In this document: piece by piece, positions 208 to 51,875 of the stretch
Layout of the letters: each line of letters opens with the position of its first letter
How positions within the stretch are numbered: position 1 is the first letter of the stretch
NCBI GenBank assembly: GCA_934085595.1
Contig: CAKOHK010000001.1
Coordinates: forward strand, 77,429 to 141,428
DNA length: 64,000 bases
Reading direction: 5' to 3'
From: an uncultured Bacilli bacterium
Lineage (GTDB): Bacteria; Bacillota_I; Bacilli_A; RF39; UBA660
Position numbers and translations under genes: made by a program
Notes under the pieces: generated by a model
What the model saw: only the letters and a program-made list of their open reading frames with translations
Told to the model about the DNA's origin: nothing
Database searches by the model: none

Positions 208-2007
208 TTAATTAATTTTATTTACTAATTTTAATGAGTATTTGTTATCAACTAATTCTTTTCCCATATCTTCAAGTAATCTAAAGTCTAGTTTTTGATT
301 AGGAGTATATGGTATTTTGTCTAATTTTTCAAAGTACGTTGGTATTTCATAATCAGGTAGTTCTTCTTCGCATATATTTTTGATAGTATCTTTTACATCT
401 TCAAAATTAATTCCTTCTTTTAATACAACAAAAGACATTAATGTTGATCCATTTATTTCATCAGGAACACCAACTACTATAGTACTTTCTACAAAAGGAA
501 GTTTATTTATCACTTCTTCAATCGAATCAGGACTAATTTTAAATGCTGCTTTATTAATAACTCTTCTATTTCTTCCTCTTATAAAAACATAACCATCTTT
601 ATCAATATACCCAAGATCTCCAGATTTAACCCATTCTTTATTATTTGAATCTTTTTCTTTAATTTTATCTGTTGCTTCTTGATTATTTAAATATTGAACA
701 AACAAATTATCTGATGATATATATATTTCACCCGTACTTCCTACCGGTAATTCTTCTAAAGTATCAGGATCAACAACTTTAATATCAACACCTTTCATAG
801 GAAGCCCTATACTACCAGGCTTATTAGCATACATTGAATTAACTATAACAGCACCTAAACATTCATTATTTCCATAACCATTAACTATCGTAGTATCAAA
901 AGCTTGCTGCATATCAATAATTTCTTCTTCTAAAATCTTATCTCCACCAGAAACAAACGCTTTAGCTCTATTAATTCCATCAAGAACACGCTTTAATTCT
1001 TTCATTTTTTTCTTAAGTTCTTTTTTAGATGAAATAGAACTATCTTTACTAAGCATATCTATATCTTTATTTAATTCAATTATTTTTTTATAAATATATC
1101 TATAATGACCAGGAGTCGCTAATGAAATATCAAACTTACCTAAATCATCATAAACAATACCTTCATTTATAAACGGATTCATTTCAGCTTTCATTGTAAA
1201 AGCCATACTAGCATAAACAGAATTACCAAGTCCATATATTATGAAAGGAGGAACAGATACATGCATAGTATTACCCCTATAAAAAGGTAAATCAGCATAA
1301 GCCATCTTTTGAACCGCTGAATTAAAATTATATTCAGTGTGAACTATTTGCTTAGGTTTACCAGAACTTCCACTTGACTGTACAATCAAAGATGGTCTAT
1401 CTTTTTCAAAATTAATAGGAATTACTTCTTCACTTCTTCCATATTTTGAAATAAAATCACTAAATCTTATAAATCTAGGATCATCAGGAATAACAATTTT
1501 CTTATTATCTTTTCTGTCTTTAAATGTTACAAACATCTTACCAGCAAGGGATAAATAATCTTTAGCAGAACATACAATAACTTTTTGTACATTTGTTTCA
1601 TCTATTATTGCTGATACTAAAGGAAGAATATTTTCAAATACTATAACTGTTTTACAATCACTATTATTAATATAATTTATAATGTCTTTTGCTTTACATC
1701 TTAAATCAATAAAAGAAATACTAGCTCCTAATTTAGATATAGCAAGCAATGTTTCTTGTACAATAGGCATACTAATACTAAGTATAGCAACATTACTATT
1801 TTCTTTTACCCCAATTGATTTAAGAGCACTTGCAAATAAATCTGCTTCACTTATAAGTTCTTTATAACTAATTTCATTTCCCATAAATCCTACCGCAGGA
1901 TAATTCATATAATCTTTACTTTCATTAGTAATAAGACTATACATAGTTTGATTAATATCAAACTCTTTAATAGGTTTCTTTCTATGATATTTTATTTCAT
2001 TTTCCAT
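208..2007 (-). CDS. AMP-dependent synthetase/ligase (long-chain acyl-CoA synthetase-like)
   Basis: ORF track 208..2046. AMP-binding motif SSGSSGKPKQ and a C-terminal ligase domain are present. The better start is the internal ATG at 2007 (MENEIKY...), preceded by AAGGGG RBS; the ATG at 2046 has no RBS. Confidence 0.8.
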   Translation of the reverse strand: MENEIKYHRKKPIKEFDINQTMYSLITNESKDYMNYPAVGFMGNEISYKELISEADLFASALKSIGVKENSNVAILSISMPIVQETLLAISKLGASISFIDLRCKAKDIINYINNSDCKTVIVFENILPLVSAIIDETNVQKVIVCSAKDYLSLAGKMFVTFKDRKDNKKIVIPDDPRFIRFSDFISKYGRSEEVIPINFEKDRPSLIVQSSGSSGKPKQIVHTEYNFNSAVQKMAYADLPFYRGNTMHVSVPPFIIYGLGNSVYASMAFTMKAEMNPFINEGIVYDDLGKFDISLATPGHYRYIYKKIIELNKDIDMLSKDSSISSKKELKKKMKELKRVLDGINRAKAFVSGGDKILEEEIIDMQQAFDTTIVNGYGNNECLGAVIVNSMYANKPGSIGLPMKGVDIKVVDPDTLEELPVGSTGEIYISSDNLFVQYLNNQEATDKIKEKDSNNKEWVKSGDLGYIDKDGYVFIRGRNRRVINKAAFKISPDSIEEVINKLPFVESTIVVGVPDEINGSTLMSFVVLKEGINFEDVKDTIKNICEEELPDYEIPTYFEKLDKIPYTPNQKLDFRLLEDMGKELVDNKYSLKLVNKIN

Positions 2008-2082
2008 AACATACCCCTTCAAAACATAGTTAGTATGATACCACATTTTTCATATTTTTTCAATTTTATTTTATTATGATTA

Positions 2083-8518: not shown

Positions 8519-9691
8519 TCAAGAAATTTTAACCCTCATTATATCGTATTTAGATAGTTTAAAAGGCACTTTTATTTTAACTATTTCTCTTGCATGATTA
8601 GATGTATTAACACTTATATTATCAGAGTTTATTATGTCTTTAATAGTATATGTAATAGGTTCTAAATTAGGACCAAAAAACTCTACTTCATCATCTACAT
8701 TAAATCTATTTCTTTGTTCAATAACTGCATACCCATCTTTATCATAATCTAGTACAAGACCTAAAAAATCTTGATTACTTACTTCTACTCTTCCATTATA
8801 ATATTCAGCATCTACTCCATATTCACCATTATAAAACTGAGCCATATTCTCTCTATTAGAACATCTATTTAATACTTTTTTATAGTATTCTATCTTATTG
8901 CTAGTAAGATCACCATTAATTTTAGCATCTATTACATTTCTATATGCATTACATACAGTAGCTATATAATACATACTTTTCATTCTACCTTCTACTTTAT
9001 ATGACTCTATACCTAAATCCATCATATCAGATATATAATCTATCATATTTAAATCTTTACTACTAAATGTAAACTTATTAGAATGCTTATTATCAAATAC
9101 AAATCTACATATTTGAGCGCATCCACCTCTATTAGAATCTCTCTTAGTTATATAATTTGATAGTACACATCTTCCACTATATGAAGTACACATAGCTCCA
9201 TGTATAAATACTTCCACTTCACAATTAGTATTTTCTTTAATATATTTTATATCATCTCTTGAGCACTCTCTTGCCAGTACTACTCTATAAGCACCAAGTG
9301 ACTCATAAAACTTAACTGCTTCTAAATTAGTTATTGATTTTTGAGTTGATATAAAAAAAGGTATTTTAAGTTCTAATCTTTTAATAGACTCTATTACTGC
9401 AAAATCACTAATTATTAAAGAATCAACTCCTATTTTATCTAAAGTTATTAAATATTCATCTAAATCTTTTAAATCTTCATTATGAAATATCATATTAACT
9501 GTTACATATACTTTTTTATTAAGTTTATGTGCAAATTCACATGCTTCTTTTATTTCATCTATAGTAAAGTTATTAGCATTAGCTCTTAAACTATAATTAG
9601 TTCCCCCTATATATACAGCATCAGCCCCATATATAAAAGCAAACTTAAGTCTTTCTAAATCTCCTGCTGGTAATAATAATTCATATTTCAT
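8519..9691 (-). CDS. Peptidase U32 family protein (YrrO-like)
   Basis: 390 aa with a U32 collagenase-like N-terminus (LLLPAGDLERLKFAFIYGADAVYIGG). Synteny matches the mltG-yrrM-yrrN-yrrO-greA arrangement. Confidence 0.8.
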   Translation of the reverse strand: MKYELLLPAGDLERLKFAFIYGADAVYIGGTNYSLRANANNFTIDEIKEACEFAHKLNKKVYVTVNMIFHNEDLKDLDEYLITLDKIGVDSLIISDFAVIESIKRLELKIPFFISTQKSITNLEAVKFYESLGAYRVVLARECSRDDIKYIKENTNCEVEVFIHGAMCTSYSGRCVLSNYITKRDSNRGGCAQICRFVFDNKHSNKFTFSSKDLNMIDYISDMMDLGIESYKVEGRMKSMYYIATVCNAYRNVIDAKINGDLTSNKIEYYKKVLNRCSNRENMAQFYNGEYGVDAEYYNGRVEVSNQDFLGLVLDYDKDGYAVIEQRNRFNVDDEVEFFGPNLEPITYTIKDIINSDNISVNTSNHAREIVKIKVPFKLSKYDIMRVKIS

Positions 9692-13121: not shown

Positions 13122-14570
13122 TTATTGAATAACAAAAGGATTATCAGTGCTTCCATCACCTGATATATATTTGACATTAGTATCAAGATATACAGACTGA
13201 CGCAATCCGCCGCTGCGGTTCGTACCAGTGTAGTCCACACCACCGTTGCTGAACACACCCAACGCACCAGCTGAGACATACGAAATAGGCGACACGGCCC
13301 AAAACCAATTACTTGTATCTAATAGCCAGTTAGTACTTTTACATGTTTCACTTCTATAGTCTGTATTATATGGTGAAGAACCACTATCATCATAACCTTT
13401 TTTAGTATCATCATTATAACATGCGCTACTTGCATACATATAATCACTTGGATATATTAATGCTACTTTCCCATCCCATGTTTGTTTATTTCCATTATGT
13501 ACATTAGTACTTCTTTCTTGAGTATATATTTCTTTTGTAGTTCCATATCCAACATTATTTGTCCACACAACACTCCCAAGGTACCATTTTGTACTGCTTA
13601 TTTGACCTTTTGCTTTATCTGTTAAGCCATTGCTTGCATATGTACCTGTTCTATTGTAATACTCTCCTCTATTTAATGTGGTCATTAATGTAGCGGTCGT
13701 CCAGTCATTATAGTTTGTTGCTGAATTAGTCTCGTTCCATACTGCTGTTCCGATGCTTTCCCTTACTATTTTGACTTTATTTTCTCTCGTGTATGTTCCA
13801 TCACCATTAGGTGTTTCTGCTTCAAATACTCCAATTATTCTCCACACTCCAGTTTCCCCATTAAATGTTATATAGTTATTTGGAGTTTTACCCTGGTATC
13901 TATATTCTGTTGTTGCATAGTTTTGATTGCCTGATGCTGTTTGGTCTATTTTTGTTAAACCTAATGTACTATAATTATCTATTAGATAATTTGTAAGTAT
14001 TACTTTCTTACTACTCTCTGCTGCCGCAAGAACTCCATAGAACTTTTTACCTTGGTTATAATTTTGCGCTTTATCTTCATAATTTATAAACTCTATAGTT
14101 ACTGTATAAGTGTGTTTCTCACCCGGCAATATTTTCACATTTTCTTTATATGGATATATTACTTTATTTGTTTCTGCGGTTACTTCTGAAGTTTGTGGGA
14201 TAATCACATTTTCAGTATTATCACATGTTCCACCAGTAGCTCCACTACTTATACATGTACTTCTTATAACAAGTTCCTCTTTTTGAATCTCATTATAAAG
14301 CTTTTGCCATCCTAAAGCATAATATGCTTCTTCATTACCAGTATTTTCTACAGTTATAGTTTTAGTAGTTGTCCATTTTGGCTCAATACTATCTACTTTA
14401 ATTTCTTTTCCATCAGTATAAATTAATTCAATCTTAGTAGTACTTACATTTATAGTTTCTGCTACATCATTACCACTTACTACTAAGCTAAAATATGCAT
14501 AAGTAATTCCGGTAATTATTAAAAACACACTTGTAAGTATTACTGCTAATAATATTTTTTTATCTTTCAT
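13122..14570 (-). CDS. Secreted hypervariable protein, paralogue 1: TasA/camelysin-like N-terminal domain (SipW-type signal peptide) + conserved C-terminal domain ending in a DGR-type variable repeat
   Basis: 482 aa. The N-terminus MKDKKILLAVILTSVFLIITGITYAYFSLVVSG resembles the SipW-cognate AYFSD class. The block ...ITVENTGNEEAYYAL...DKAQNYNQGKKFYGVL parallels camelysin (...FLLQNSGSL...GKDQNIFQGDSLNLEW). The C-terminal ~40 codons (approx 13185-13305) are GC-rich and differ from the paralogues mainly at positions that are Asn codons in the 51567..51797 copy. Confidence 0.8.
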   Translation of the reverse strand: MKDKKILLAVILTSVFLIITGITYAYFSLVVSGNDVAETINVSTTKIELIYTDGKEIKVDSIEPKWTTTKTITVENTGNEEAYYALGWQKLYNEIQKEELVIRSTCISSGATGGTCDNTENVIIPQTSEVTAETNKVIYPYKENVKILPGEKHTYTVTIEFINYEDKAQNYNQGKKFYGVLAAAESSKKVILTNYLIDNYSTLGLTKIDQTASGNQNYATTEYRYQGKTPNNYITFNGETGVWRIIGVFEAETPNGDGTYTRENKVKIVRESIGTAVWNETNSATNYNDWTTATLMTTLNRGEYYNRTGTYASNGLTDKAKGQISSTKWYLGSVVWTNNVGYGTTKEIYTQERSTNVHNGNKQTWDGKVALIYPSDYMYASSACYNDDTKKGYDDSGSSPYNTDYRSETCKSTNWLLDTSNWFWAVSPISYVSAGALGVFSNGGVDYTGTNRSGGLRQSVYLDTNVKYISGDGSTDNPFVIQ

Positions 14571-14676: not shown

Positions 14677-16251
14677 TTATAATGATGAAACAGGTTCTTC
14701 TTTAAATCTTAAAGCAATATATCCAACTGTAAATGCCCCTAGTATTGCAAGTAATAAAGTACCATAATCTTCTACACCAGTTTTAGCATTATATTCTAGT
14801 TTAACTTCATTATGAGGATTAACATCAATAATCTTAGCACTTACTATTACTACTTGATCTAGTTTAGATTCTGAATAGAACAATCTTCCTCTATTACTAT
14901 CAGTATTATATACTTTACCTTTACCATCTAAATCAATATTAATTTGAGTAGTAGATTTATATTTATTATCTATTCTTATATAGAACTCTGAATATCCTTC
15001 ATTATCACTATTATTAATATTTGTTACATTATATACTTTCTTACCATCTACTTCACTATATGGAAGTTCTTTTAAATCTTTATCCACTAAAGTAACACCT
15101 TCAGAAGGATTTGTAACTTTAGCAGTTATGCTATTCCAATCAGTAACTAACATTTTAGATTTAACTTTATATGGTCCATAATATTCAGCATCACTTTCAC
15201 TTTTATATGCTTCTTTACTTGGAAGTTCAAGTACTAATTCATTTTTATATGTGTCATCTACATATTTATCTCTATCTTTAATTAAGAATTGATATAATTT
15301 ATTAAGTTCACTATTACCAACTAATGTATCACCTAAATATAATTTATTTTCCCCATCAAGTTCATAATATTCCCCTATTACTTTCCATACTGCATATTGT
15401 ACAGTAGCATACACAGCATTACTTACATTTTCTTCACTATTATTTAAAGATGAAAGTAATGTTTCATAAGATACTCCAGCATATTCTAAACTATCTTTTA
15501 AACTTAGTGATGGATAACTATGCTCTATAATATATAAAGCTTTTCTATATCCTATACTATCACTCATTTCACTTGCTGTATAATGGTTAATCATAAAATC
15601 ACTTTTCTTAAATGTTACACTTACTTTACCATCAACTATTTCTTTTCCAAGACTAGATGCTATATCATTAGCATTTAATAATTTAACATCTCTACTATTA
15701 GCTTTTGGTATAAAACCTATACTAGTCATACTAGAAGTAATCTCTTCTCCATTATTAAATGCAGTAATAGTGCTTTCACTAGGATCACTTACCATATCAA
15801 CATAATATCCAGTAACATCATCTATACCATCAAGTAAATTACAACCACTTTTATTATTACATTCTTTTAATATTTGAAAAGCAGTCATTATTTTAATTAA
15901 ATCTTTACCACTCATAGTAGTAGCAATATATTGATATTCTGGATATTTTTTATTTCCATCCATACAATAAGCACTAAAATAATTACTTTCATTTCCACTA
16001 TAAATAATTTTCATATCACTTTTACCAGTAATATACTTATCATTTACATTAGTAGTAAACTTAACATAACTATAGTCAAAAGAATCTCCTACTGTAAAGT
16101 CTCTCTTATCCCCTACATTAAATCCACTTTCATTTATTTTAGGAATTATTCTAGCACTATTAGCACTTTGACTTGCTGCTATAACATCAGTTTTTAACAT
16201 AAAACCTAAAACAAAAGTAAATAAAACAAACAATAAAAATCTTTTTTTCAT
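14677..16251 (-). CDS. Secreted surface protein, putative thioester-domain (TQXA-like) adhesin with C-terminal sorting-signal-like anchor
   Basis: 524 aa with a signal peptide (MKKRFLLFVLFTFVLGFMLKTDVIAAS). A Cys-containing motif SAYCMDGNKKYPE is present, together with a Gln motif ATVQYAVWKV resembling TQXA(V)W. The C-terminus YNAKTG-VEDYGTLLLAILGAFTVGYIAL-RFKEE looks like an LPXTG-type tripartite signal with a non-canonical NAKTG motif. Confidence 0.4.
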   Translation of the reverse strand: MKKRFLLFVLFTFVLGFMLKTDVIAASQSANSARIIPKINESGFNVGDKRDFTVGDSFDYSYVKFTTNVNDKYITGKSDMKIIYSGNESNYFSAYCMDGNKKYPEYQYIATTMSGKDLIKIMTAFQILKECNNKSGCNLLDGIDDVTGYYVDMVSDPSESTITAFNNGEEITSSMTSIGFIPKANSRDVKLLNANDIASSLGKEIVDGKVSVTFKKSDFMINHYTASEMSDSIGYRKALYIIEHSYPSLSLKDSLEYAGVSYETLLSSLNNSEENVSNAVYATVQYAVWKVIGEYYELDGENKLYLGDTLVGNSELNKLYQFLIKDRDKYVDDTYKNELVLELPSKEAYKSESDAEYYGPYKVKSKMLVTDWNSITAKVTNPSEGVTLVDKDLKELPYSEVDGKKVYNVTNINNSDNEGYSEFYIRIDNKYKSTTQINIDLDGKGKVYNTDSNRGRLFYSESKLDQVVIVSAKIIDVNPHNEVKLEYNAKTGVEDYGTLLLAILGAFTVGYIALRFKEEPVSSL

Positions 16252-18721: not shown

Positions 18722-19924
18722 CTATTCTTCTTTTAGTAGCCAATCTATTACATTCATTTTAGTTATACCATCATAATCAGTTTCTAAATCCATGTCTAAT
18801 GTAAGTAAAACTCTCGGATAATAATCTCCTGTTTTACGAAGTGATCTTAGTTCTCTTTCTAAAACTTTTTCATCTCTTACAGTTAAAGCAACTTGATAGT
18901 ATTTTAGTCCATCTCTATTTTCTGCTACAAAATCTATTTCTAAATCATCTACTTTACCAGTATAAACTCTATATCCTCTTCTTAATAATTCAAGATATAC
19001 TATATTTTCTAATATATGTCCCATATCACTATCTGCTTTTTTACCTAGTAAATAACTTCTAAGCCCCAAATCAACCGTATAGTATTTATAATCTCTTGCT
19101 AGTAAACTTTTGCCTTTTACATCAAATCTTTCAGTTTTATAAATCAAGAAAGATTCTAAAAAAGCTGATATATAGTTTTCTACAGTATGATTACTAGTTA
19201 AAGTTCCTTTACTTGTAAGTGTATCACTTATCTTTTTAGTTGAAATAGGACTACCTATACTATCAAATATAAACTTTAATATACTTTCAAGTAACAATTT
19301 ATCTGTAATATTATTTCTAGCCATTATATCTTTATATACAATTGTACTAAATATACCATCTAAGTATTTATCTATATCATTAGGATTACTTTTCAATATG
19401 TTTATGCTCCCTGGCATACTTCCATTTCTCATGTAATCTAAAAATAATTTTGAATAATTATTATCATCAAACGCTGATATATATTCTTTAAATGAAAGTG
19501 GTAACATTTTAATTTCTATATATCTTCCAGACAATAAGGTAGCAAGTTCTCCTGATAATAAATATGCATTTGAACCCGTTATATATACATCAACATTCTT
19601 TTTTATATATAAACTATCCACTGCCCTTTGAAAATCTTTTACACTTTGAACTTCATCTATAAATATATAATATTGTTTCTTAGAACTAAGTTTATCATTA
19701 ATGTATTTATATAGTTCTTTATAATCTTTAAAATCATAGCTAGCATCTTCTAAATTAATATGTATAATTTGTTCTTTAGTAACACCATTTTCTATTAAAT
19801 AATTAATAAATAATTCAAATAATGTACTTTTGCCACACCTTCTTATACCAGTTACAACTTTTATTAAATCTTTATCTTTCCATCTTATTAATTCGTTAAG
19901 ATAATTTGTTCTTTCTATCAACAT
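18722..19924 (-). CDS. AAA+ ATPase, DUF4143 family (ATP-binding protein)
   Basis: 400 aa with Walker A GIRRCGKST and Walker B YIFIDEVQ. The architecture is typical of DUF4143/AAA_14 proteins. Confidence 0.7.
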   Translation of the reverse strand: MLIERTNYLNELIRWKDKDLIKVVTGIRRCGKSTLFELFINYLIENGVTKEQIIHINLEDASYDFKDYKELYKYINDKLSSKKQYYIFIDEVQSVKDFQRAVDSLYIKKNVDVYITGSNAYLLSGELATLLSGRYIEIKMLPLSFKEYISAFDDNNYSKLFLDYMRNGSMPGSINILKSNPNDIDKYLDGIFSTIVYKDIMARNNITDKLLLESILKFIFDSIGSPISTKKISDTLTSKGTLTSNHTVENYISAFLESFLIYKTERFDVKGKSLLARDYKYYTVDLGLRSYLLGKKADSDMGHILENIVYLELLRRGYRVYTGKVDDLEIDFVAENRDGLKYYQVALTVRDEKVLERELRSLRKTGDYYPRVLLTLDMDLETDYDGITKMNVIDWLLKEE

Positions 19925-24815: not shown

Positions 24816-25736
24816 ATGCATAAAAAATATATACTACTAACTTTTATATTAATAATATTTTTACTTAATATAAACATAGTACTTTCATCAGTAACTGAAG
24901 CTTCAGTTATATTTTATACCAAGATATTTGTATCAGTATTTCCATTTATAATATTATCAAACATATTAATATATTTTAATTATCACTTATTCTTAAATAA
25001 AATATTTAAAAAACCACTAAATAAACTATTTAATATATCTTCTTCCTCTATAATATTTATACTAAGTATTTTATCAAGTATGCCATCAAACTCTATATAT
25101 ACTAAAAACTTACTTGATAACAAATTAATAAATACTACTGAAGCAAATAAAATATTAACTTTTACATACTTTCCATCTATAAGTTTCATGATCGGTACGG
25201 TGGGTTATAAAATGTTTAATAATATTAAAATAGGTATAATTTTATTATTATCTAACTACATATATAATATTTTAATAGGTATATATTTAAGAAAAGATAA
25301 AATTAACTTCACTTTAGAAAATGAAAACTCTATCAATAAAACATCATTTTTTGATATGTTAACAAATACCATATTAAATGCATTTAAAACATGCGCTATT
25401 ATATTAGGTAACTTAATAATATTTATAATTATAATAAATATATTAAATAAATATTTAAATATAAATAATACTTTATTATCTATACTATCAGGACTACTTG
25501 AATTAACAACTGGAAGTGATATGTTATCTTTATTAGATATTAATATAAACTTAAAAATAGCTCTTACTTCTCTAATAATTAACTTTAGTGGTCTATCTAT
25601 ATTATTTCAATCTAAAAGTATATTAAATGATTATAATATAAATATAAAAAGAATATTAATTATTAAACTAATATTCTCTATAATAATATCTATTTTATTA
25701 TATATATTCTTATATTATAGTGCTTTATATTCATAA
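24816..25736 (+). CDS. Polytopic integral membrane protein (possibly YlbJ-like sporulation membrane protein)
   Basis: 306 aa with multiple hydrophobic helices. It is divergent from the YlbL-like gene, as ylbJ is in Bacillus. The match is weak. Confidence 0.45.
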   Translation: MHKKYILLTFILIIFLLNINIVLSSVTEASVIFYTKIFVSVFPFIILSNILIYFNYHLFLNKIFKKPLNKLFNISSSSIIFILSILSSMPSNSIYTKNLLDNKLINTTEANKILTFTYFPSISFMIGTVGYKMFNNIKIGIILLLSNYIYNILIGIYLRKDKINFTLENENSINKTSFFDMLTNTILNAFKTCAIILGNLIIFIIIINILNKYLNINNTLLSILSGLLELTTGSDMLSLLDININLKIALTSLIINFSGLSILFQSKSILNDYNINIKRILIIKLIFSIIISILLYIFLYYSALYS

Positions 25737-26326
25737 TTTTTATAATTTGAATATAACTTTACATCATAATTTCTATCACTAGCAATTATAGTTATAATAA
25801 ATACTTTTTCTTTATTACTTATATCTATAGTAGTATTAGTAATAGAAGCAAAATGATAATTATATACATTTATAAGTTTACTAGCACTATCATTTCCTTC
25901 ATAATTAGAAGTTGATTTAATAGTTTTAATAAACATATTTTTATCATTCTTACTATCTCTATATTCAATAGTACTATAAGTTTCAATACTAAATCCATTA
26001 CTTCCTCTATTAGTATAATTTTTTTTATCCTTTTTTATTCTAAGAGCAAGACTTCTCTCTTCCCCATCCATTAGTTTAATATTGCACATATATCTATTAT
26101 CATTTTCTTTATTACAAGAAACTTCTCTTATTCCATCATGTGCTATAAAATCATCATTTATAATATTACTAGTAAGACTACCAAATACTTTAATATCAGT
26201 ATCATTATCACTATCATTATATACTTCTCTAAGTCTTATTAAACTAGACATCATAAATACAAGTATAACACTAACAAGAGTAATACTAACAAGTAACTCT
26301 ATTAAAGTAAATCCTTTCTTATTCAT
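25715..26326 (-). CDS. Prepilin-type N-terminal cleavage/methylation domain protein (type IV pilin/pseudopilin-like)
   Basis: The N-terminus MNKKGFTLIELLVSITLVSVIL matches the class III signal (G-F-T-L-I-E, with Glu at +5). Confidence 0.7.
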   Translation of the reverse strand: MNKKGFTLIELLVSITLVSVILVFMMSSLIRLREVYNDSDNDTDIKVFGSLTSNIINDDFIAHDGIREVSCNKENDNRYMCNIKLMDGEERSLALRIKKDKKNYTNRGSNGFSIETYSTIEYRDSKNDKNMFIKTIKSTSNYEGNDSASKLINVYNYHFASITNTTIDISNKEKVFIITIIASDRNYDVKLYSNYKNYEYKAL

Positions 26327-26330
26327 ATAT

Positions 26331-26813
26331 TTACTCCATTTCTATAGAAGCATAATAATATTTCCCGTTTCTATAAAACACCCCTACTGCATAAGTCTTA
26401 TTATTATCTTTCTCTTTATCACTTATATATTCTAAATAATTAATAGTTCCACTTTGATATCTACTATAATTGTTTTTAACTTCATTACTTAGATTTTTAA
26501 TAACACCAGCATATAACAAATCATACTTTTTCATAACACTATCACATGAACTTATATATTTATTTATATCACTACTACTACAGTTATCTCTTCTAGTAAA
26601 GAAATTACTTCCATAAGTTATATAATTATCTTTAAGTGTAGTACCAATATTCATAAAAGTATAAAGAGCATATATATCACTTGAATTATCATAATATGTA
26701 TTAATATCTACTCTTTTCATAATAATAGTATAATTAACAAGTAACATACTAGTAGCTAACGCAACCACTGTAAGAACAGCAATAGTTTCTAAAAACACAA
26801 ATCCTTTTTTCAT
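26331..26813 (-). CDS. Pseudopilin-like protein
   Basis: The N-terminus MKKGFVFLETIAVLTVVAL is prepilin-like (G-F-V-F-L-E). 160 aa. Confidence 0.6.
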   Translation of the reverse strand: MKKGFVFLETIAVLTVVALATSMLLVNYTIIMKRVDINTYYDNSSDIYALYTFMNIGTTLKDNYITYGSNFFTRRDNCSSSDINKYISSCDSVMKKYDLLYAGVIKNLSNEVKNNYSRYQSGTINYLEYISDKEKDNNKTYAVGVFYRNGKYYYASIEME

Positions 26814-27712
26814 AGTTTCACCACATATGGACTATAATATTTTCCATTTCCTCTTTTAACTCTAACACTGCTTTTGAAAGATATAACGCCCTTTAAATAA
26901 GCATTAGAAGTATAACTTGTACTAACTAAAGTATTATTATATACATATATATTATTACCACTTCTTGACATAGTCCATATATTATTAGGAATATAAGAAT
27001 TAGATAAACCACTAAGTACTACTTCACTAGCACTAACAAGCCCCATAGGATATTTAAGTTTACCGTTTCCATTATAACTAGAAACACTATAAGAATAATT
27101 AGAACACTTTAACGATATACTAGAATTATACACATCAGCACAATAAACACTATCTTCTAAATAATCTTTATACTTTAATATATTATTTTCATAAAAACTA
27201 TCTAAATTATTTTTAACATTACTACTTTCATATAAATTATTACTAGTAGAATAACTAACTAAACTTCCATTATCAACACTACATGCTTCATTACTATATT
27301 TTCCATAATATATTGCCCTAACTCCAGAAGAAGTATTACTTTTAATAATTCTAAAACACATATTTCCAAGAGCCACAAAATTATTAACATCTTTTCCCCT
27401 ATAATAATATATCTTATTACTATCTAAAGTTCTATATAAAAGCCCTTCTCCATTAGTACTACTACTATTTTTAGTAAAATCTATAGAAGAATCACTAACC
27501 GGATTATTATCATTAATTATTCTGCATAAAAGAAAATCACTATCACTATCGCACATACCATAATTAAGTTTAATTTCGCTCTCTACTTTTTCATTTATAG
27601 TATTTAAATAATTAAGTTTCCTAGTATAATTAAGTACTATTATTACATTAATAAATACAAAAACTATAAAAAATGAATAAACAAGTGTAGTTGAAACAAA
27701 TCCCTTTTTCAT
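26810..27712 (-). CDS. Pseudopilin-like protein (minor pilin, lacks Glu+5)
   Basis: N-terminus MKKGFVSTTLVYSFFIVFVF. 300 aa, Ser/Tyr/Asn-rich. First gene of a three-gene overlapping operon. Confidence 0.5.
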   Translation of the reverse strand: MKKGFVSTTLVYSFFIVFVFINVIIVLNYTRKLNYLNTINEKVESEIKLNYGMCDSDSDFLLCRIINDNNPVSDSSIDFTKNSSSTNGEGLLYRTLDSNKIYYYRGKDVNNFVALGNMCFRIIKSNTSSGVRAIYYGKYSNEACSVDNGSLVSYSTSNNLYESSNVKNNLDSFYENNILKYKDYLEDSVYCADVYNSSISLKCSNYSYSVSSYNGNGKLKYPMGLVSASEVVLSGLSNSYIPNNIWTMSRSGNNIYVYNNTLVSTSYTSNAYLKGVISFKSSVRVKRGNGKYYSPYVVKL

Positions 27713-28503: not shown

Positions 28504-28554
28504 AAAAGTATTGAAAAACATGTATAATTATGATATATTTTATACATGTCTTAT

Positions 28555-28631
28555 GGCGATGTAGCTCAGTTGGCTAGAGCACACGGTTCATACCCGTGGT
28601 GTCGAGGGTTCGAATCCCCCCGTCGCTACCA
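28555..28631 (+). tRNA. tRNA-Met (CAT), elongator-type
   Basis: 77 nt GGCGATGTAGCTCAGTTGGCTAGAGCACACGGTTCATACCCGTGGTGTCGAGGGTTCGAATCCCCCCGTCGCTACCA. The cloverleaf has a CAU anticodon and an encoded CCA. The acceptor and anticodon arms resemble Bacillus elongator tRNA-Met. An upstream promoter TTGAAA-N17-TATATT lies at 28511-28539. Confidence 0.85.
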
Positions 28632-28665
28632 AAAAGATATTTACCCAAAACTTGGGTTTAATAAA

Positions 28666-28698: not shown

Positions 28699-28848
28699 TT
28701 CAAAATAAAAACTATAACTATAAAGTCATCTATAGCACTTCTATTATAACTTCAATATCACCACCCTTCACTTAACAAATCATATATCATAAATTGACAA
28801 ACATATCAAAAAATGATAATATAATTACCAATTTGGAGAAACACATTA

Positions 28849-29876
28849 TGGAAGAAAGAAATAAAGAAAAATTAATAGAGCTAAATAATATAGCAGACAT
28901 GATAAGACTAAGTTATCTTAAATTAGAAAAACTAGAAATGGAAGGAAAACAAGATACTAAAGCTTATCATGAAACTATTGAATATTTAAAATCTCAAATA
29001 GAAATGGAAGAAAATACTTATAAAAGATTTTGTTCTACTTATGAAGAAGCTCGCTCTCTAGCAGCAATAGTTTGTAAAAGATTATATAATGATGATGATA
29101 TAGAAAACAAAAACTCTATTACGTTAGAAAATGGTAGTATTTTTAATGGTAAACTAGAAGATTCAAATAACAAAAGAATATTAGATAAATTAATGGACTA
29201 TATGGATAAAGATACAAAAGGAACTTTAAAAGCACTTACCAATGCTGATAATATGGTAGCATTATTATCAATAATAAATAGTTCACTAGAAACAGAAATA
29301 GCAAGAACATCTGCAATATTAAAATCAATCAAATATGATATAACTATTCTAGTTCTTAAATATTTAGATGAATATATAAATGACGATAAATATAAAAATA
29401 TAAGAGAAACTCTTATAAGAATTAAATACTATATAATTTATACAAAAACAATTATGGAATATAGTTTAATTAATAATTCTTTTGAACTTCCAAAAGATAT
29501 AATCTTAACATCTAAAATGGTTCATGAATATAATACACCAGAAAATATAGGCGAATATGAAGATAATACAGATACAGTTATAACTAACAATACAATAGTT
29601 ATAATGAATGATATTGTTGCTTTAAACGATTCAGAAATAACCGATCCAAATAATATATGTGCTATCATGAAAATATGTTTCTTTAAAGCATATATGACAT
29701 TAATAAGTAGTTCTACAAGTGAAATATTAAAAGAAGCATACTTACAATATACAAGTTCAGAAGGATATAAAAAGAACAATAAAAACTATAAAATAACAGA
29801 AGAAACAATATTATCTATCATAAACGAAACAGAAAAATATAAAAAATGTATAAGTAGATTCACATTAAAAAGATAA
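28849..29876 (+). CDS. Hypothetical cytoplasmic protein
   Basis: The ORF track gives 28794..29876. The start is preferred at ATG 28849 (MEERNKEK...), which has a GGAG RBS. The protein is alpha-helical with no known motifs. Confidence 0.45.
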
Positions 29877-29902: not shown

Positions 29903-31636
29903 TTAATTTATAACAAATGGATTACTCTTAGTTCCATCACCACTTACATAGTTTACCTTAGTATTAAGATACACAGACTGACGCACGCTACCATAGTTAA
30001 TTGAGCTGGTGTAATCCACATTACCATAAACGTTCACAAACATTGCATTACCCGGATGGTTAGAATTTAGTGACACAACCCAATACCACGCTCCAATAAA
30101 TAACCAATTAGTATTAATGCATTTTTCATTTCTATAATCTTTGCTTGAATCAGAAACATTATTAGCTTTCATTGTATTGTCATTATAGCATGCACTACTT
30201 GCATACATATAATCACTCGAATATATAAGTGCTACTTTCCCATCCCATGTTTGTTTTTTGCCACTATGTACACTTGTGCTTCTTTCTTGAGCGTACATTT
30301 CTTTTGTATTACCATAACCAACATCAGAAACCCACGTTCCATTTCCTAAATACCATTTTGTCATGCTTATTTGACTTTTTGCAGTACTTGTTAAGCCATT
30401 ATTTGCATATGTACCCACTTTATTGTAGTAATCTCCATTATTTAACAACTTCATCAGTGTTGCGGTTGTCCAGTCATTATACGATTTTGTAGAGTTCCAT
30501 TCAATCAATCCAATTCTATCTCTTACTATCTTTACCTTATATTCTTTTGTATATCCACTTCCATTTGGTGTTTCTACTTCAAAAACTCCAATAATTCTCC
30601 ACACTCCAGTTTCATCATTGAATGTTATATAGTTGTTTGGAGTTTTACCTTGATATCTATATTCTGTTGTAGCATAATTCTGATTACCTGTCGCCGTTTG
30701 TGATATTTTAGTTAGACCAAATAGTGTATAATTATCTTTTAAACAATTAGCTAATGTTTTACCTGTGCATATGCTTTCAAGAGTACTTTTCCAGTGTGCA
30801 TACAAAGTATGATTAGTATTAGTTGTAACTTTAGTATTTGCATTAACTTTTACTCCACCATTTAAAGAAGTGTACCAGCCCATAAAATCATATCCGCTCT
30901 TAACTGGAGTACATAACTCACCATAGTTTAATCCATATGATACGTCTTTAGAACTACAGCCTGATCCTCCATTATTATCATATGTTAGCTTAACTTTATT
31001 TTCTATAAAATTGATAGTACATTTTTCATCTTTAACAATATTCTTAAAGGTAATCTTATCATTATTAACTATTATATTTGTGCAAGTACTACTATAGTAT
31101 TTATATCCAGTTTTAGGAGTAACTGTAAATATAGCATCTCCTCCATCATAAACAAAAGCATATGCTGGACTTACAGTTCCTTTATTTTCATCACTACTTG
31201 ATACTTCAAGTAAATTATAAGGCACAAACTTCCAAGGATCTTTATAAGTACCTCTTCCTATAATTTTAACTTCTTTCTTAATATACTCTGTTACTCTAAT
31301 ATTACTATCAGTACTTGATTCATTATTTATCACTTTTCCATCAATAGTAAAATAAGGCAATGATGTAACTAAATATGAAGAATCATCTGTTTTAGATGAG
31401 TTCACTTCATATATATTTATAAGTCCACCAGTATTAAATCCATTTACATATGATATAGTTTTATTGTTATATCCAAATGGTATTTTAGATGTATTTATTA
31501 GATATGCTATATTTTTTCTATTATTTTTTATATAGTTATTACTTATATCTTTACCTTCATCAAAACTATAAGCGTTAATATTACTAATAAACATAAATAT
31601 ACATAAAAAACTAATTATTTTAAATACTCGTTTCAT
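29903..31636 (-). CDS. Secreted hypervariable protein, paralogue with alternative N-terminal region and the family's C-terminal domain + variable repeat
   Basis: 577 aa with a different signal peptide (MKRVFKIISFLCIFMFISNINAYSF) and a ~290-aa N-terminal region. From ...LFGLTKISQTATGNQNYATTEYRYQGKTPNNYITFN onward it is homologous to the family's C-terminal domain. The C-terminus ...GNAMFVNVYGNVDYTSSINYGSVRQSVYLNTKVNYVSGDGTKSNPFVIN aligns to the TR-like copy. Confidence 0.75.
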   Translation of the reverse strand: MKRVFKIISFLCIFMFISNINAYSFDEGKDISNNYIKNNRKNIAYLINTSKIPFGYNNKTISYVNGFNTGGLINIYEVNSSKTDDSSYLVTSLPYFTIDGKVINNESSTDSNIRVTEYIKKEVKIIGRGTYKDPWKFVPYNLLEVSSSDENKGTVSPAYAFVYDGGDAIFTVTPKTGYKYYSSTCTNIIVNNDKITFKNIVKDEKCTINFIENKVKLTYDNNGGSGCSSKDVSYGLNYGELCTPVKSGYDFMGWYTSLNGGVKVNANTKVTTNTNHTLYAHWKSTLESICTGKTLANCLKDNYTLFGLTKISQTATGNQNYATTEYRYQGKTPNNYITFNDETGVWRIIGVFEVETPNGSGYTKEYKVKIVRDRIGLIEWNSTKSYNDWTTATLMKLLNNGDYYNKVGTYANNGLTSTAKSQISMTKWYLGNGTWVSDVGYGNTKEMYAQERSTSVHSGKKQTWDGKVALIYSSDYMYASSACYNDNTMKANNVSDSSKDYRNEKCINTNWLFIGAWYWVVSLNSNHPGNAMFVNVYGNVDYTSSINYGSVRQSVYLNTKVNYVSGDGTKSNPFVIN

Positions 31637-36929: not shown

Positions 36930-38351
36930 TTATTCTATAACAAACAGATTATTACTACTACCATCACCTGACATGTATTTGACACTAGTATCAAGATATA
37001 CAGACTGACGCACGCCGCCGGAGCTGAAACTCGTATCGCCCGTATTCACCTTACCGGAATTGTTCACATACCTCGCACCGTCCGAACTGCTAGAACTAGG
37101 CGACACGGCCCAAAACCAATTATTCGTATCTAATAACCAGTTAGTACTTTTACAAATTGAATCATCATAGTTAAAACCTATTGTTCCATTATTGTAGCAA
37201 CTGCTACTCGCATACATATAATCACTTGGATATATTAGTGCTACTTTTCCATCCCATGTTTGTTTATTTCCACTATATACATTAGTACTTTTTTCTTCTT
37301 GATATGTTCCTTGACAATCCTTACTACTACTTCCATAAGTAACATTTCCTAAGTACCATTTTGTACTACTTATCTGATTTTTTGCATTTTCTGTTAAACC
37401 GTTGCTTGCATATGTACCTGTTCTATTGTAATACTCCCCACTATTTAATGTGGTCATTAATGTAGCGGTCGTCCAGTCATTATAGTTTGTAGCTGAATTA
37501 GTTGCATTCCATGCTGCTTTTCCTATTGTATCTCTTACTATTTTAACTTTATTTTCTTTTATATATGTTCCGTCACTTTGTGGTGTTTCCACTTCGAATA
37601 CTCCAATTATTCTCCATACTCCTGTTTCACCATTGAACGTTATATAGTTGTTTGGTGTTTTACCTTGATACCTATATTCACTTGCTGCATAATTTTGATT
37701 ACCTGTTGCTGTTTGGTCAATTTTTGTTAAACCTAATGTACTATAATTATCTATTAAGTAGTTTGCAAAAGTTTGAGTTTGTTCTTTTCCACTACTTTCT
37801 GCTGCTCCAAGAACTCCATAGAATCTTTTGCCTTGATTATAATTTTGTGCTTTATCTTCATAATTTATGAACTCAATAGTTACAGTATAAGTGTGTTTCT
37901 CACCTGGTAATATTAATACATTTTCTTTATACGGATATAATACTTTATTTGCTGCAGCATTTACTTCTGATGTTTGAGGGATAGCTACATTGTCTGTACT
38001 TGAGCAAGTCCCTCCTGTTGCTCCACTACTTGTACATGTACTTCTTATAACAAGTTCTTCTTTTTGAATCTCATTATATAGTTTTTGCCATCCCAAGGCA
38101 TAATATGCTTCTTCATTACCGGTATTTTCTACTGTTATAGTTTTAGTAGTTGACCATTTAGGCTCAATATTATCTACTTTAATTTCATTTCCATCAGTAT
38201 AGATTAATTCTATTTTAGTAGTACTTACATTAATAGTCTCTGCTACATCATTACCACTTACCACTAAACTAAAGTATGCATAAGTAATTCCTGTAATAAT
38301 CAAAAATACACCTGTAAGTAATACTGCTAATAATATTCTTTTATCTTTCAT
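36930..38351 (-). CDS. Secreted hypervariable protein, paralogue 3 (TasA-like N-domain + C-terminal domain with variable repeat)
   Basis: 473 aa, ~85% identical to paralogue 1 outside the C-terminal variable block (~36993-37113). That block is GC-rich: ...SPSSSSSDGARYVNNSGKVNTGDTSFSSGGVRQSVYL. The gene has its own promoter TTGACT-N17-TATAAT (38379-38407) and an AGGAG RBS. Confidence 0.8.
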   Translation of the reverse strand: MKDKRILLAVLLTGVFLIITGITYAYFSLVVSGNDVAETINVSTTKIELIYTDGNEIKVDNIEPKWSTTKTITVENTGNEEAYYALGWQKLYNEIQKEELVIRSTCTSSGATGGTCSSTDNVAIPQTSEVNAAANKVLYPYKENVLILPGEKHTYTVTIEFINYEDKAQNYNQGKRFYGVLGAAESSGKEQTQTFANYLIDNYSTLGLTKIDQTATGNQNYAASEYRYQGKTPNNYITFNGETGVWRIIGVFEVETPQSDGTYIKENKVKIVRDTIGKAAWNATNSATNYNDWTTATLMTTLNSGEYYNRTGTYASNGLTENAKNQISSTKWYLGNVTYGSSSKDCQGTYQEEKSTNVYSGNKQTWDGKVALIYPSDYMYASSSCYNNGTIGFNYDDSICKSTNWLLDTNNWFWAVSPSSSSSDGARYVNNSGKVNTGDTSFSSGGVRQSVYLDTSVKYMSGDGSSNNLFVIE

Positions 38352-49747: not shown

Positions 49748-51463
49748 TTACTCAATCACAAAAGGATTACCACTAGTTCCATCACCGCTTACATATTTTA
49801 TATTAGGACTAAGATATATCGAAGGACATAAACCAGCTGTAGAACTTTTAATTACAAGACCATTTATCAAATTACCGACATTATTTACGTATAATGCACC
49901 AAGTTTATCCACGGAAACAGGTGTTACACTCCAGTATCGTAATCCACTAAATAACCAATTAGTACTTGTGCATGTAGAATCAGAATAACCATTTCCCAAA
50001 ACTCCACTATTATAACATGTACTACTTGCATACAAATAATCGCTTGGATACATTAATGCTACTTTTCCATCCCATATTTGACTATTACCATTATGTACAC
50101 TTGTGCTTCTTTCTTGTACATATAAATCTTTTGCACTTTTATTGTTATCTCCATTTCCTAGATACCATTTTGTTGTGCTTATTTGGCTTTTTGCTTCAAT
50201 AGTTAATCCATTACTTAAATACGTACCGGTTCTGTTATAATAATCACCAGAATTTAATGTTGTCATTAACGTTGATGTAGTCCAATCGTTGTCGCCTTCA
50301 CTACCATTTTCATTCCAAGCTATATTTGTTTCAATACTATCTCTAATTATCTTTACTTTATTTTCTTTTGTATATATTCCATTCCCGTTAGGTGTTTCAA
50401 CTTCAAATACGCCTATTATTCTCCAAACATTATCTTCCCCATTAAATGTTATATAGTTATTTGGAGTTTTACCTTGATATCTATAGTCTACTGTTTCATA
50501 ATTTTGATTACCAGTTAGGGCTTGATTGATTTTAATTACATTTAAACTTTCATAATTATCAATTATATAATCTGACAATTTATAATCTAAATTAATATTG
50601 GATATCTTTTGATTATCAACAATAACATCAAGCCGTATATTTTTACTTATCGGTTTAACACTATAAGATTCATCAGATTTAATTATCTCGTTTTCTCCAT
50701 TAAAAAGTTTTATTTGAGTAGTAGTAATATCGTCATTATTGTCAACTGTTAAAGTATGATTACCAAGTTCTACATCATTAAATATTACTGTACCATTTTC
50801 ATCTGTTGTTCCAGTCATTGGTGTTGAATGTAATGTTACCTTGCTATTTGGAATAACAGTTCCATCAGTGTTTTTAACATTAAGTGTAAGATTATATGTA
50901 TTATATGCTTCAACAAGTCCTAAAACTCCGTAGAACTTTTTACCTTGATTATAGTTTTGTGCTTTATCATCATAATTTATAAACTCTATAGTTACCATAT
51001 AGGTATGAGTTTCTCCTGGTAATATTAGTGCTGCTTCTTTATATGGATACAATATCTTGCCAGATTCTCTGGTTACCTCTGCCGTTTGCGGAATAACAAC
51101 ATTATCTGTGTTATCACACGTACCACCTGTAACTCCACTACTTGTGCATGTACTTCTGATTACTAGTTCTTCTTTTTGAATCTCATTATATAATTTTTGC
51201 CATCCTAAAGCATAATATGCTTCTTCATTACCAGTATTTTCTACAGTAATTGTTTTAGTAGTAGTCCAGTTAGGCTCAATACTATCTACTTTAATTTCAT
51301 TTCCATCAGTATAAATTAATTCAAGTTTAGTAGTACTTACATTAATAGTTTCTGCTACATCATTACCACTTACTACTAAGCTAAAATATGCATAAGTAAT
51401 TCCAGTAATTATTAAAAACACACTTGTAAGTATTACTGCTAATAATATTCTTTTATCTTTCAT
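49748..51463 (-). CDS. Secreted hypervariable protein, paralogue 4 (TasA-like N-domain + inserted CnaB/CarboxypepD_reg-like domain + C-terminal domain with variable repeat)
   Basis: 571 aa. An extra ~115-aa segment NVKNTDGTVIPNSKVTLHSTPMTGTTDENGTVIFNDVELGNHTLTV shows the TDENG...G.YTL pattern of Cna-B/carboxypeptidase-regulatory-like domains. The variable block is ~49811-49935 (…VDKLGALYVNNVGNLINGLVIKSSTAGLCPSIYL). The promoter TTGAAA-N17-TATACT lies at 51490-51518. Confidence 0.8.
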   Translation of the reverse strand: MKDKRILLAVILTSVFLIITGITYAYFSLVVSGNDVAETINVSTTKLELIYTDGNEIKVDSIEPNWTTTKTITVENTGNEEAYYALGWQKLYNEIQKEELVIRSTCTSSGVTGGTCDNTDNVVIPQTAEVTRESGKILYPYKEAALILPGETHTYMVTIEFINYDDKAQNYNQGKKFYGVLGLVEAYNTYNLTLNVKNTDGTVIPNSKVTLHSTPMTGTTDENGTVIFNDVELGNHTLTVDNNDDITTTQIKLFNGENEIIKSDESYSVKPISKNIRLDVIVDNQKISNINLDYKLSDYIIDNYESLNVIKINQALTGNQNYETVDYRYQGKTPNNYITFNGEDNVWRIIGVFEVETPNGNGIYTKENKVKIIRDSIETNIAWNENGSEGDNDWTTSTLMTTLNSGDYYNRTGTYLSNGLTIEAKSQISTTKWYLGNGDNNKSAKDLYVQERSTSVHNGNSQIWDGKVALMYPSDYLYASSTCYNSGVLGNGYSDSTCTSTNWLFSGLRYWSVTPVSVDKLGALYVNNVGNLINGLVIKSSTAGLCPSIYLSPNIKYVSGDGTSGNPFVIE

Positions 51464-51542
51464 TCTATGTACTCCTATTCTCTATTAATAGTATACTTTA
51501 ATTAAATCTATATTTCAATATCAAAAAAAGCTAAGCATAATA

Positions 51543-51797
51543 AAAAAATGAACATAAGTTCATTAATTATTGTATCACAAATGGATTATCAGTAGTCCCA
51601 TCACCACTTATATAATTTATGTTAGTGTCCAAGTAAACGGAGGTACGCACACCGCCAGAGCTGTTGTTCGTATTATTGTTGTTCACATTACCGTTGTTGT
51701 TCACATTCATCGCATTGTTCGAATTGTTAGAACTAGGCGACACGGCCCAAAATACAAGACTTGCTAAGGGGCTAACCCTATTAAAGGCAAATGCCAT
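51543..51797 (-). other. Putative DGR template repeat (TR): non-genic, Asn(AAC/AAT)-rich copy of the family's 3' end including terminator
   Basis: Homology to the target 3' ends starts at FWAVSP (~51762) and runs through the stop (51567) and the ATGAAC/GTTCAT terminator (51543-51563). The TR encodes WAVSPSSNNSNNAMNVNNNGNVNNNNTNNSSGGVRTSVYLDTNINYISGDGTTDNPFVIQ, with 15 Asn among the 40 variable-block codons. The preceding 15 codons are not homologous and there is no RBS or promoter of its own. Confidence 0.6.
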
Positions 51798-51829
51798 TTA
51801 ACCATTGTTTGTTAATATTTAATAACTTG

Positions 51830-51859
51830 GTGCCCGCACAGTTCCACCGTGCAGGGCAC
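51830..51859. promoter_or_regulatory. GC-rich nested hairpin between target 5 stop and TR (no U-tract)
   Basis: The sequence is GTGCCC-GCAC-AGTTCCACC-GTGC-A-GGGCAC. It is about 68% GC in a ~25% GC genome. It lies 17 bp downstream of the paralogue-5 stop (51876) and 33 bp upstream of the TR-like copy. Confidence 0.6.
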
Positions 51860-51875
51860 TTTACATTTTCTCTTT

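Follow-up and report, generated by a model that had tools for sequence, protein, structure and literature searches.

A predicted template repeat and adenine-biased variable repeats in lectin-like paralogues of a low-GC gut bacterium

What wrote the short GC-rich blocks that interrupt a very AT-rich chromosome, and is the process that wrote them still at work? The question is raised by a 64,000-nt stretch of core chromosome (hereafter the window; 25.8% GC) from an uncultured Bacilli bacterium, whose minus strand carries five intact, mutually paralogous open reading frames (ORFs): g13 (13122-14570), g29 (29903-31636), g36 (36930-38351), g49 (49748-51463) and g51 (51876-53393). A preliminary description of this DNA had correctly placed all five and had taken each of them for a target of one diversity-generating retroelement (DGR), that is, for the carrier of a variable repeat (VR) related to an Asn-rich template repeat (TR). 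Our analysis points to a narrower answer. We consider it probable that a DGR wrote the VRs, with this TR or earlier variants of it as the template, that the system is now quiescent or devoid of its reverse transcriptase (RT), and that its diversity is being reshuffled by recombination.

A scan of the window for at least 50% GC in 100 nt returned just four places, namely the C-terminal blocks of g13, g36 and g51 and one tRNA-Met gene. The block of g13, previously flagged as a VR at 13185-13305, was placed at 13182-13304 (core 13200-13304, 105 nt; 57% GC), and the VRs of g36 and g51 at 36990-37115 (core 37008-37115; 56% GC) and 51936-52061 (core 51954-52061; 58% GC), all on the minus strand. The homologous minus-strand blocks of g29 (29963-30085) and g49 (49811-49936) have 40% and 34% GC. 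As had been described, each block keeps two to six Asn residues and the scaffold residues between the variable positions are in register; the g13 and g29 blocks each lack one codon.

We compared the blocks with the 108-nt TR core and counted mismatches separately at adenine sites and at other sites. In three genes the differences were concentrated on the template adenines: 20/34 adenine sites against 9/74 other sites in g51 (p = 1e-6), 22/34 against 8/71 in g13 (p = 4e-8) and 15/34 against 9/74 in g36 (p = 4e-4). The counts for g29 (15/34 and 22/71, p = 0.14) and g49 (19/34 and 34/74, p = 0.23) showed no such bias. Because of these counts we regard g13, g36 and g51 as carrying genuine VRs, the block of g29 as a decayed former VR and that of g49 as a product of plain drift; its equal divergence at adenine and other sites is the very pattern that the preliminary description had named as a sign of paralogue drift. 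The proposed five GC-rich targets are therefore three, and for these the claim that the variable positions fall on TR adenines and Asn codons was confirmed. The eight to nine non-adenine mismatches per VR exceed what is seen in textbook active DGRs, and in g51 seven of the nine are confined to the last 15 nt.

The template itself, with the 15 Asn codons previously reported, was located on the minus strand at 51645-51752. This 108-nt core contains 34 adenines, 30 of which lie in the 15 AAY Asn codons. Adenine is absent from the third position of all 18 degenerate scaffold codons (P ~1e-4 from host codon usage), 11 of which end in G or C, compared with 1.4 expected from host codon usage. The template thus codes its mutable positions as AAY and avoids adenine elsewhere, and on this anatomy 51645-51752 is a predicted DGR template repeat. 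The core belongs to a larger TR unit (51542-51797, minus), a 5'-truncated copy of the C-terminus of a paralogue, whose 76-codon pseudo-ORF (51567-51797, minus) lies between g51 and g49, encodes ...FWAVSPSSNNSNNAMNVNNNGNVNNNNTNNSSGGVRTSVYL... and continues into a paralogue-like tail and a terminator. The unit ends in an AT-rich terminator hairpin (51542-51564, minus), and its tail and terminator share 77-85% identity with the 3' end of g13. The TR lies directly downstream of g51, with ~200 nt from the end of the VR core to the start of the TR core, so that g51 at least is not a target in trans, as all five had been held to be.

The 123-nt spacer upstream of the TR (51753-51875, minus) was found only beside the TR or the TR' copies described below. 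It includes a predicted GC-rich hairpin just after the g51 stop codon (51830-51859, minus). We considered this hairpin as a part of the TR unit and rejected that assignment, since it is kept in a P0004 allele (L113) with no TR downstream; it is part of the 3' untranslated region of g51. A promoter and terminator scan predicted no TR promoter and no canonical terminator, the GC-rich hairpin not being called because it has no U-tract, and an Rfam search of the TR region gave only a chance-level match.

In every VR the mutagenised stretch is followed directly on its 3' side by CAGTC(T/C)GTATATCTTGAT; at this position the TR reads ACCTCCGTTTACTTGGAC, which differs at 9/18 positions. In DGRs the initiation of mutagenic homing site (IMH) on the VR and its mismatched counterpart on the TR (IMH*) make the transfer one-way. 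The switch between VR and TR at the 3' boundary is consistent with such a pair, as far as can be judged from the letters alone. In addition, the VR sits in a C-terminal fold that is C-type-lectin-like.

The footprint is not peculiar to the window. A database search with g51 returned 1023 homologues, and among the best of these we found dozens of different VRs on gene bodies 60-86% identical to g51. From the family we assembled 44 distinct VR blocks of 41 residues and calculated the per-column entropy, which the preliminary description had proposed as a check. It amounted to 3.05 bits at the 15 TR-Asn positions and to 0.74 bits at the other 26 (Mann-Whitney p = 9e-8), and adenine substitution in AAY (giving NNY codons) can produce 98.3% of the residues at the Asn positions. 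Given this footprint across the family, neither plain paralogue drift nor gene conversion from a cassette explains the VRs, and we infer that adenine mutagenesis of the RT type wrote them at some time.

Drift and conversion nevertheless deserve a hearing. The five paralogues might have diverged in the ordinary way, with or without gene conversion of the pilS/pilE type from a silent cassette and with no reverse transcription, the Asn-rich copy being a diverged fragment. The TR unit does look like a silent cassette, being the C-terminus of a paralogue, truncated at the 5' end and equipped with a tail and terminator of its own, and like the silent cassettes of Neisseria pilE/pilS it is a promoterless truncated copy beside expressed paralogues among which recombination is evident. 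Recombination moves C-terminal modules between paralogues, the same VR being found on the P0004 and P0085 backbones, and g29 and g49 fit plain drift. However, in contrast to pilE/pilS the variation is adenine-specific, fits NNY codons and forms no mosaic of cassette tracts: in three genes the differences cluster on template adenines, as they do in the family on the 15 Asn positions, NNY codons can account for 98% of the substituted residues, the supposed cassette and the VRs differ at about half of the cassette's adenines, and nowhere does a VR reproduce a TR-identical tract across the Asn codons. The scaffold codons have no third-position adenine, and islands of 56-58% GC are not what drift in a 26%-GC genome would produce. 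We therefore judge this explanation extremely improbable.

The foreign composition of the blocks would also fit another origin, in which ready-made GC-rich C-terminal cassettes were recently imported by horizontal transfer after a DGR had acted on them in a donor of higher GC, and never in the present lineage. The codon usage of the TR and VR scaffolds is indeed strongly foreign, as the 11/18 codons ending in G or C attest. Yet import would have to account for dozens of different VRs on closely related low-GC gene bodies at many loci of the core chromosome and for a TR beside a target in the same lineage, and the falling GC series formed by g29 (40%) and g49 (34%) suggests decay after long residence. 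Nor did we find a mobile source. The AAY-degenerate TR pattern had 0 matches in the metagenome collection and 0 in the viral contigs; the VR scaffold pattern, the GC hairpin and the spacer had 0 matches each in the viral contigs; and neither the TR DNA nor the target protein matched anything in the phage or plasmid collections. We regard recent import as very unlikely.

Is the system still writing? The preliminary description had implied ongoing diversification and had suggested a comparison of orthologous loci in related strains, and here the evidence went the other way. The g13 VR showed 0/123 differences in two strains 1.0% diverged over 11-13 kb (L026 and L027), the g36 VR showed 0/126 in a strain whose flanking DNA is 1.8% diverged (L028), and the g51 VR was unchanged in L006, L007, L014 and L015. 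When proteins were clustered at 90% identity or more, a single VR was common to nine distinct g13 variants and another to four g36 variants, and the block of g29 did not vary among 11 cluster members. In 51 sequences from nine further clusters, 14/251 columns varied in the VR and 317/4216 elsewhere, so the clusters show no excess of variation in the VR. Homologue pairs that share at least 98% identity outside the VR had VRs at least 93% identical in every case. Close relatives thus showed no VR hypervariability in the assemblies, whereas VR variability over the family as a whole is extreme.

At loci that do have different VR alleles (P0004, P0009), these come with different flanking C-terminal sequences, and one and the same VR recurs on distinct gene backbones such as P0004 and P0085. 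We conclude from this co-variation and recurrence that whole C-terminal modules move by recombination. In the P0058 cluster, two alternative 5' halves of the VR, KSNNSGNAL and SSYGSSLVA, stand on one identical 3' half, a pattern that either partial homing or recombination within the VR could produce.

The TR unit is polymorphic between strains. The sequence of its core was unchanged in six further contigs from five samples. In other strains (L020 1-460; L021-L025; L035 7712-7948), a TR-like unit lies upstream of a ZIP transporter gene, which marks the g36 locus, with the same 123-nt spacer as in the window. In the L020 copy, here called TR', the 5' part is identical to the window TR and the 3' part is g36-like with substitutions of its own; the remaining TR-like copies have a three-codon deletion and only ~10 Asn codons. 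The g36 VR has fewer non-adenine mismatches to TR' (6/81) than to the window TR (9/74). We rejected the possibility that the TR' copies are assembly chimeras, in view of their own substitutions and their recurrence in independent samples. In the metagenome ERZ857629 the VRs are identical to those of g36 and g13, yet a TR is present at neither locus, and strains L005 and L008 have another set of paralogues and no TR at the g51/g49 locus. That the TR is lost, moved or decayed while the VRs are unchanged fits a system that is no longer selected for mutagenesis. In L007 (6802-7999, one sample) the TR is followed by a gene that shares 99% identity with g13, not with g49, an arrangement that reflects either recombination between paralogue loci or an assembly chimera.

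A complete DGR would also require its enzyme. Of the 66 window ORFs that reach 90 aa, 58 were scanned with Pfam (the others being PolC, MurG, one 131-aa ORF and five short ORFs antisense to larger genes), with 0 matches to RVT_1; bAvd, HRDC and MutS_I had 0 matches in the scanned ORFs and in the annotated flanks. Neither a scan of the window for YxDD-type motifs nor NCBIfam on the window ORFs that had no annotation revealed an RT, and the latter found no Avd either. Neither gene was present in the precomputed Pfam annotation for the 9.5 kb on the right and the 8 kb on the left of the window. A complete related cassette (L032), which is AT-rich and comprises a target, a MutS_I-like gene, bAvd, TR and RT (RVT_1), supplied its RT and bAvd as queries for tblastn, phmmer and motif searches; these had 0 matches in the window, its flanks and 112 loci (1.23 Mb in all), including 80 metagenome loci around family members. 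No gap between genes in the window is longer than ~350 nt. The ORF at 28794-29876 was considered as an RT and rejected, as it has no Pfam or NCBIfam match and no RT motif. Within the region examined there is thus neither a linked DGR-clade RT nor a linked accessory gene, and the "one element" of the preliminary description lacks its RT and Avd genes in the window and flanks. With three hallmarks found (the adenine bias, the AAY codons and the lectin fold) and three others (a linked RT, an accessory gene and current hypervariability) missing within the region examined, the TR and VRs are best regarded as components of a DGR rather than as a demonstrated complete element.

The missing enzyme need not be a lost one. 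An RT, perhaps with Avd, could be encoded beyond 22 kb downstream or 59 kb upstream of the TR, if not on a mobile element or a separate replicon, and still use the TR RNA in trans for rare or conditional retrohoming into g51, g13 and g36. Such arrangements have precedents: avd, TR and brt have been shown to act in trans, and chromosomal DGRs can have as many as seven targets that are not adjacent, at distances that in some cases exceed 100 kb (PMC5758913), so that five paralogues within 40 kb, presented earlier as unusual, are not so in themselves. The very large family-wide diversity of the VRs also counts in favour of such a system. A scan of genome contigs returned only one relative, 31% identical, in a metagenome-assembled genome of an uncultured rabbit-gut member of the Bacilli (L018); at 8852-9116 it has a VR of 68% GC with a GC hairpin right after the stop codon, and no TR or RT lies within 10 kb.

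Several observations weigh against a defunct system, and the first two of them speak for an active, physically split one. The TR of the window is intact: it has 15 Asn codons, strictly avoids adenine elsewhere and does not differ among several samples, and so could still be under selection. Two contigs from different samples (L016 and L017) both start at one identical base inside the g51 VR, ~51985, a break that could mark coexisting VR variants differing in their 5' part, or a strain mixture. The clusters used for the within-cluster comparison under-sample very close pairs, and assemblies report majority alleles, so that low-level diversification within a sample would escape notice. The RT search covered ~82 kb around the window and scattered loci, and an RT may be encoded elsewhere in the genome.

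Set against continued activity are the lack of an RT in 1.23 Mb around family members from many genomes, the identity of VRs in strains 1-1.8% diverged and from different cohorts, VR variation within clusters that is no higher than in the rest of the protein, the persistence of the same VRs in strains whose TR is absent or decayed, and TR copies that have no adjoining RT, unlike the TR of L032 with Avd and RT beside it. On balance an active split DGR, the main rival reading, is possible but somewhat doubtful. One specific version is less likely still: the chromosome would keep the TR and at least three VR-bearing paralogues, with RT and Avd tens of kb off or mobile, and the system would work in bursts, its repertoire frozen in between, reshuffled by recombination while the TR units move. 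An RT and Avd tens of kb away or on a mobile element would imply that only some strains have the enzyme.

We therefore return to a DGR that is quiescent or without its RT as the preferred reading. In the past, adenine-mutagenic reverse transcription would have acted on an Asn-codon-rich template, one copy of which is the TR at 51645-51752. The cDNA would then have replaced the repeat in g13, g36 and g51, giving rise to VRs on the C-type-lectin-like C-terminal domain of multi-copy, presumably secreted paralogues scattered among the housekeeping genes of a gut bacterium that has 26% GC and is related to the Bacilli. In this scheme g29 would retain a decayed former VR and g49 would be without one. 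In the present population the system would be quiescent, with no RT or Avd linked to the TR and the VRs fixed across strains, and the differences between strains would come from homologous recombination that shuffles whole C-terminal modules and TR units between paralogue loci. What we observed is the adenine-specific footprint, the fold, the invariance of the VRs between strains and the lack of a linked RT; that an RT wrote the VRs and has since been lost or silenced is our inference.

The system works like a DGR, and its closest analogue is the multi-target chromosomal DGR of Treponema denticola (TvpA and remote targets). In Treponema the TR lies within an RT-containing cassette and VR sequences differ between strains, whereas the window has no RT or Avd within ~82 kb and its VRs are fixed across strains. 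With the prototype, the DGR of Bordetella phage BPP-1 (mtd-avd-TR-brt), the window shares the AAY template, substitutions specific to adenines, the position of the VR near the C-terminus on a C-type-lectin fold and a switch between TR and VR at the 3' boundary that resembles IMH/IMH*. Unlike the window, BPP-1 carries its DGR on a phage, with a single adjoining target and with Avd and RT right beside the TR. Moreover, unlike in BPP-1, the VRs of the window end ~40 codons before the stop codon and the TR homology runs on through tail and terminator. The gut Firmicute cassettes with DUF6273-type targets, represented by L032, have a very similar TR peptide pattern, SP.(A/S)NN(T/S)NN.MNVN.NGNVNNNN.NN; in contrast to L032, the window target falls below all Pfam thresholds, including that of DUF6273, and no enzyme genes are linked to it. 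The N-terminal domain of the Thomasclavelia ramosa IgA peptidase (PDB 9qa6) and the C-terminal domain of Legionella Lcl (8q4e) have no detectable sequence similarity to the window target, and neither protein is known to be a DGR target.

The mechanism is thus already known; what is new is the host lineage and the target family. An uncultured, very low-GC gut bacterium joins the organisms with DGR-diversified surface proteins, and an unannotated family of secreted lectin-like paralogues joins the known targets. The locus offers a view of a DGR after or between active periods, in which adenine-avoiding GC-rich islands persist in a 26%-GC chromosome, the TR is uncoupled from any RT, TR copies move or decay, and the paralogues form a graded series from an intact VR (g51, g13, g36) through a decayed block (g29) to no trace (g49). 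Surveys that start from the RT, as in the large DGR catalogues, would overlook such loci. Should the RT prove distant or mobile, the locus would bear on how far apart the components of a DGR can sit and function.

The paralogues are scattered among housekeeping genes (PolC, PolA, MurG, FtsQ, DivIVA, SepF, trigger factor, GreA, CysRS and several sporulation genes), and the contigs near-identical to the window come from human gut metagenomes. The g13 protein (482 aa) consists of a signal peptide, a beta-sandwich N-terminal part and the C-type-lectin-like C-terminal domain that holds the VR; g36 (473 aa) is a paralogue with a VR, and g51 (505 aa) is the target adjoining the TR. These three are 77-82% identical in amino acids (80% for g13 and g51), roughly as stated in the preliminary description (80-90%), a range that does not extend to g49 (70-73% to the three) or to g29, a distant paralogue only 43-51% identical to the other four. 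The g49 protein (571 aa) has a CarboxypepD_reg-like insert and that of g29 (577 aa) a Listeria-Bacteroides repeat insert (Flg_new domain), both according to Pfam. For g13 there were 0 matches in Pfam and 0 in NCBIfam, and the C-terminal 138 aa of the target had no Pfam match even at E <= 10 and did not reach the DUF6273 threshold. By Pfam and NCBIfam the target domain does not belong to the DUF6273, DUF1566 or FGE-sulfatase families, and a search of PDB with the target protein gave no sequence match. For some homologues, faint matches to Peptidase_M73 (camelysin/TasA family) are on record. Taken together, the paralogues look like secreted or cell-surface binders with a variable lectin tip of the DGR type.

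Further members of the family flank the window. To the right are two paralogues without VRs, of 515 and 578 aa (L001 5094-6641 and 6770-8506), and to the left, after a GtrA gene, there is probably a VR-bearing P0052-type paralogue (L029 beyond 21677 and L019 10001-11542). These bring the family to eight or more copies per genome. A look-up of the leftmost gene of the window (208-2046) returned no record.

The GC peak at 28531-28660 was considered as a TR and rejected, as it is the tRNA-Met gene. This gene (28555-28631, plus) lies between two of the few plus-strand ORFs, one encoding a 223-aa lipoprotein-like protein and the other a 360-aa helical protein, neither with a family match. At 18722-19924 (minus) there is a gene for an AAA_14/DUF4143 ATPase that is present in the window and in L027 and missing from the otherwise collinear Hadza strain L026, and is therefore a strain-variable insertion. 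A small operon at 25715-27712 (minus) encodes a protein with an N-terminal methylation motif of the pseudopilin type and two ORFs without family matches, and may be a competence pseudopilus cluster. Directly upstream of g13, the gene at 14677-16251 (minus) encodes a 524-aa protein with a thioester domain (TED, PF08341), which may be a covalent adhesin beside a variable lectin-like paralogue.

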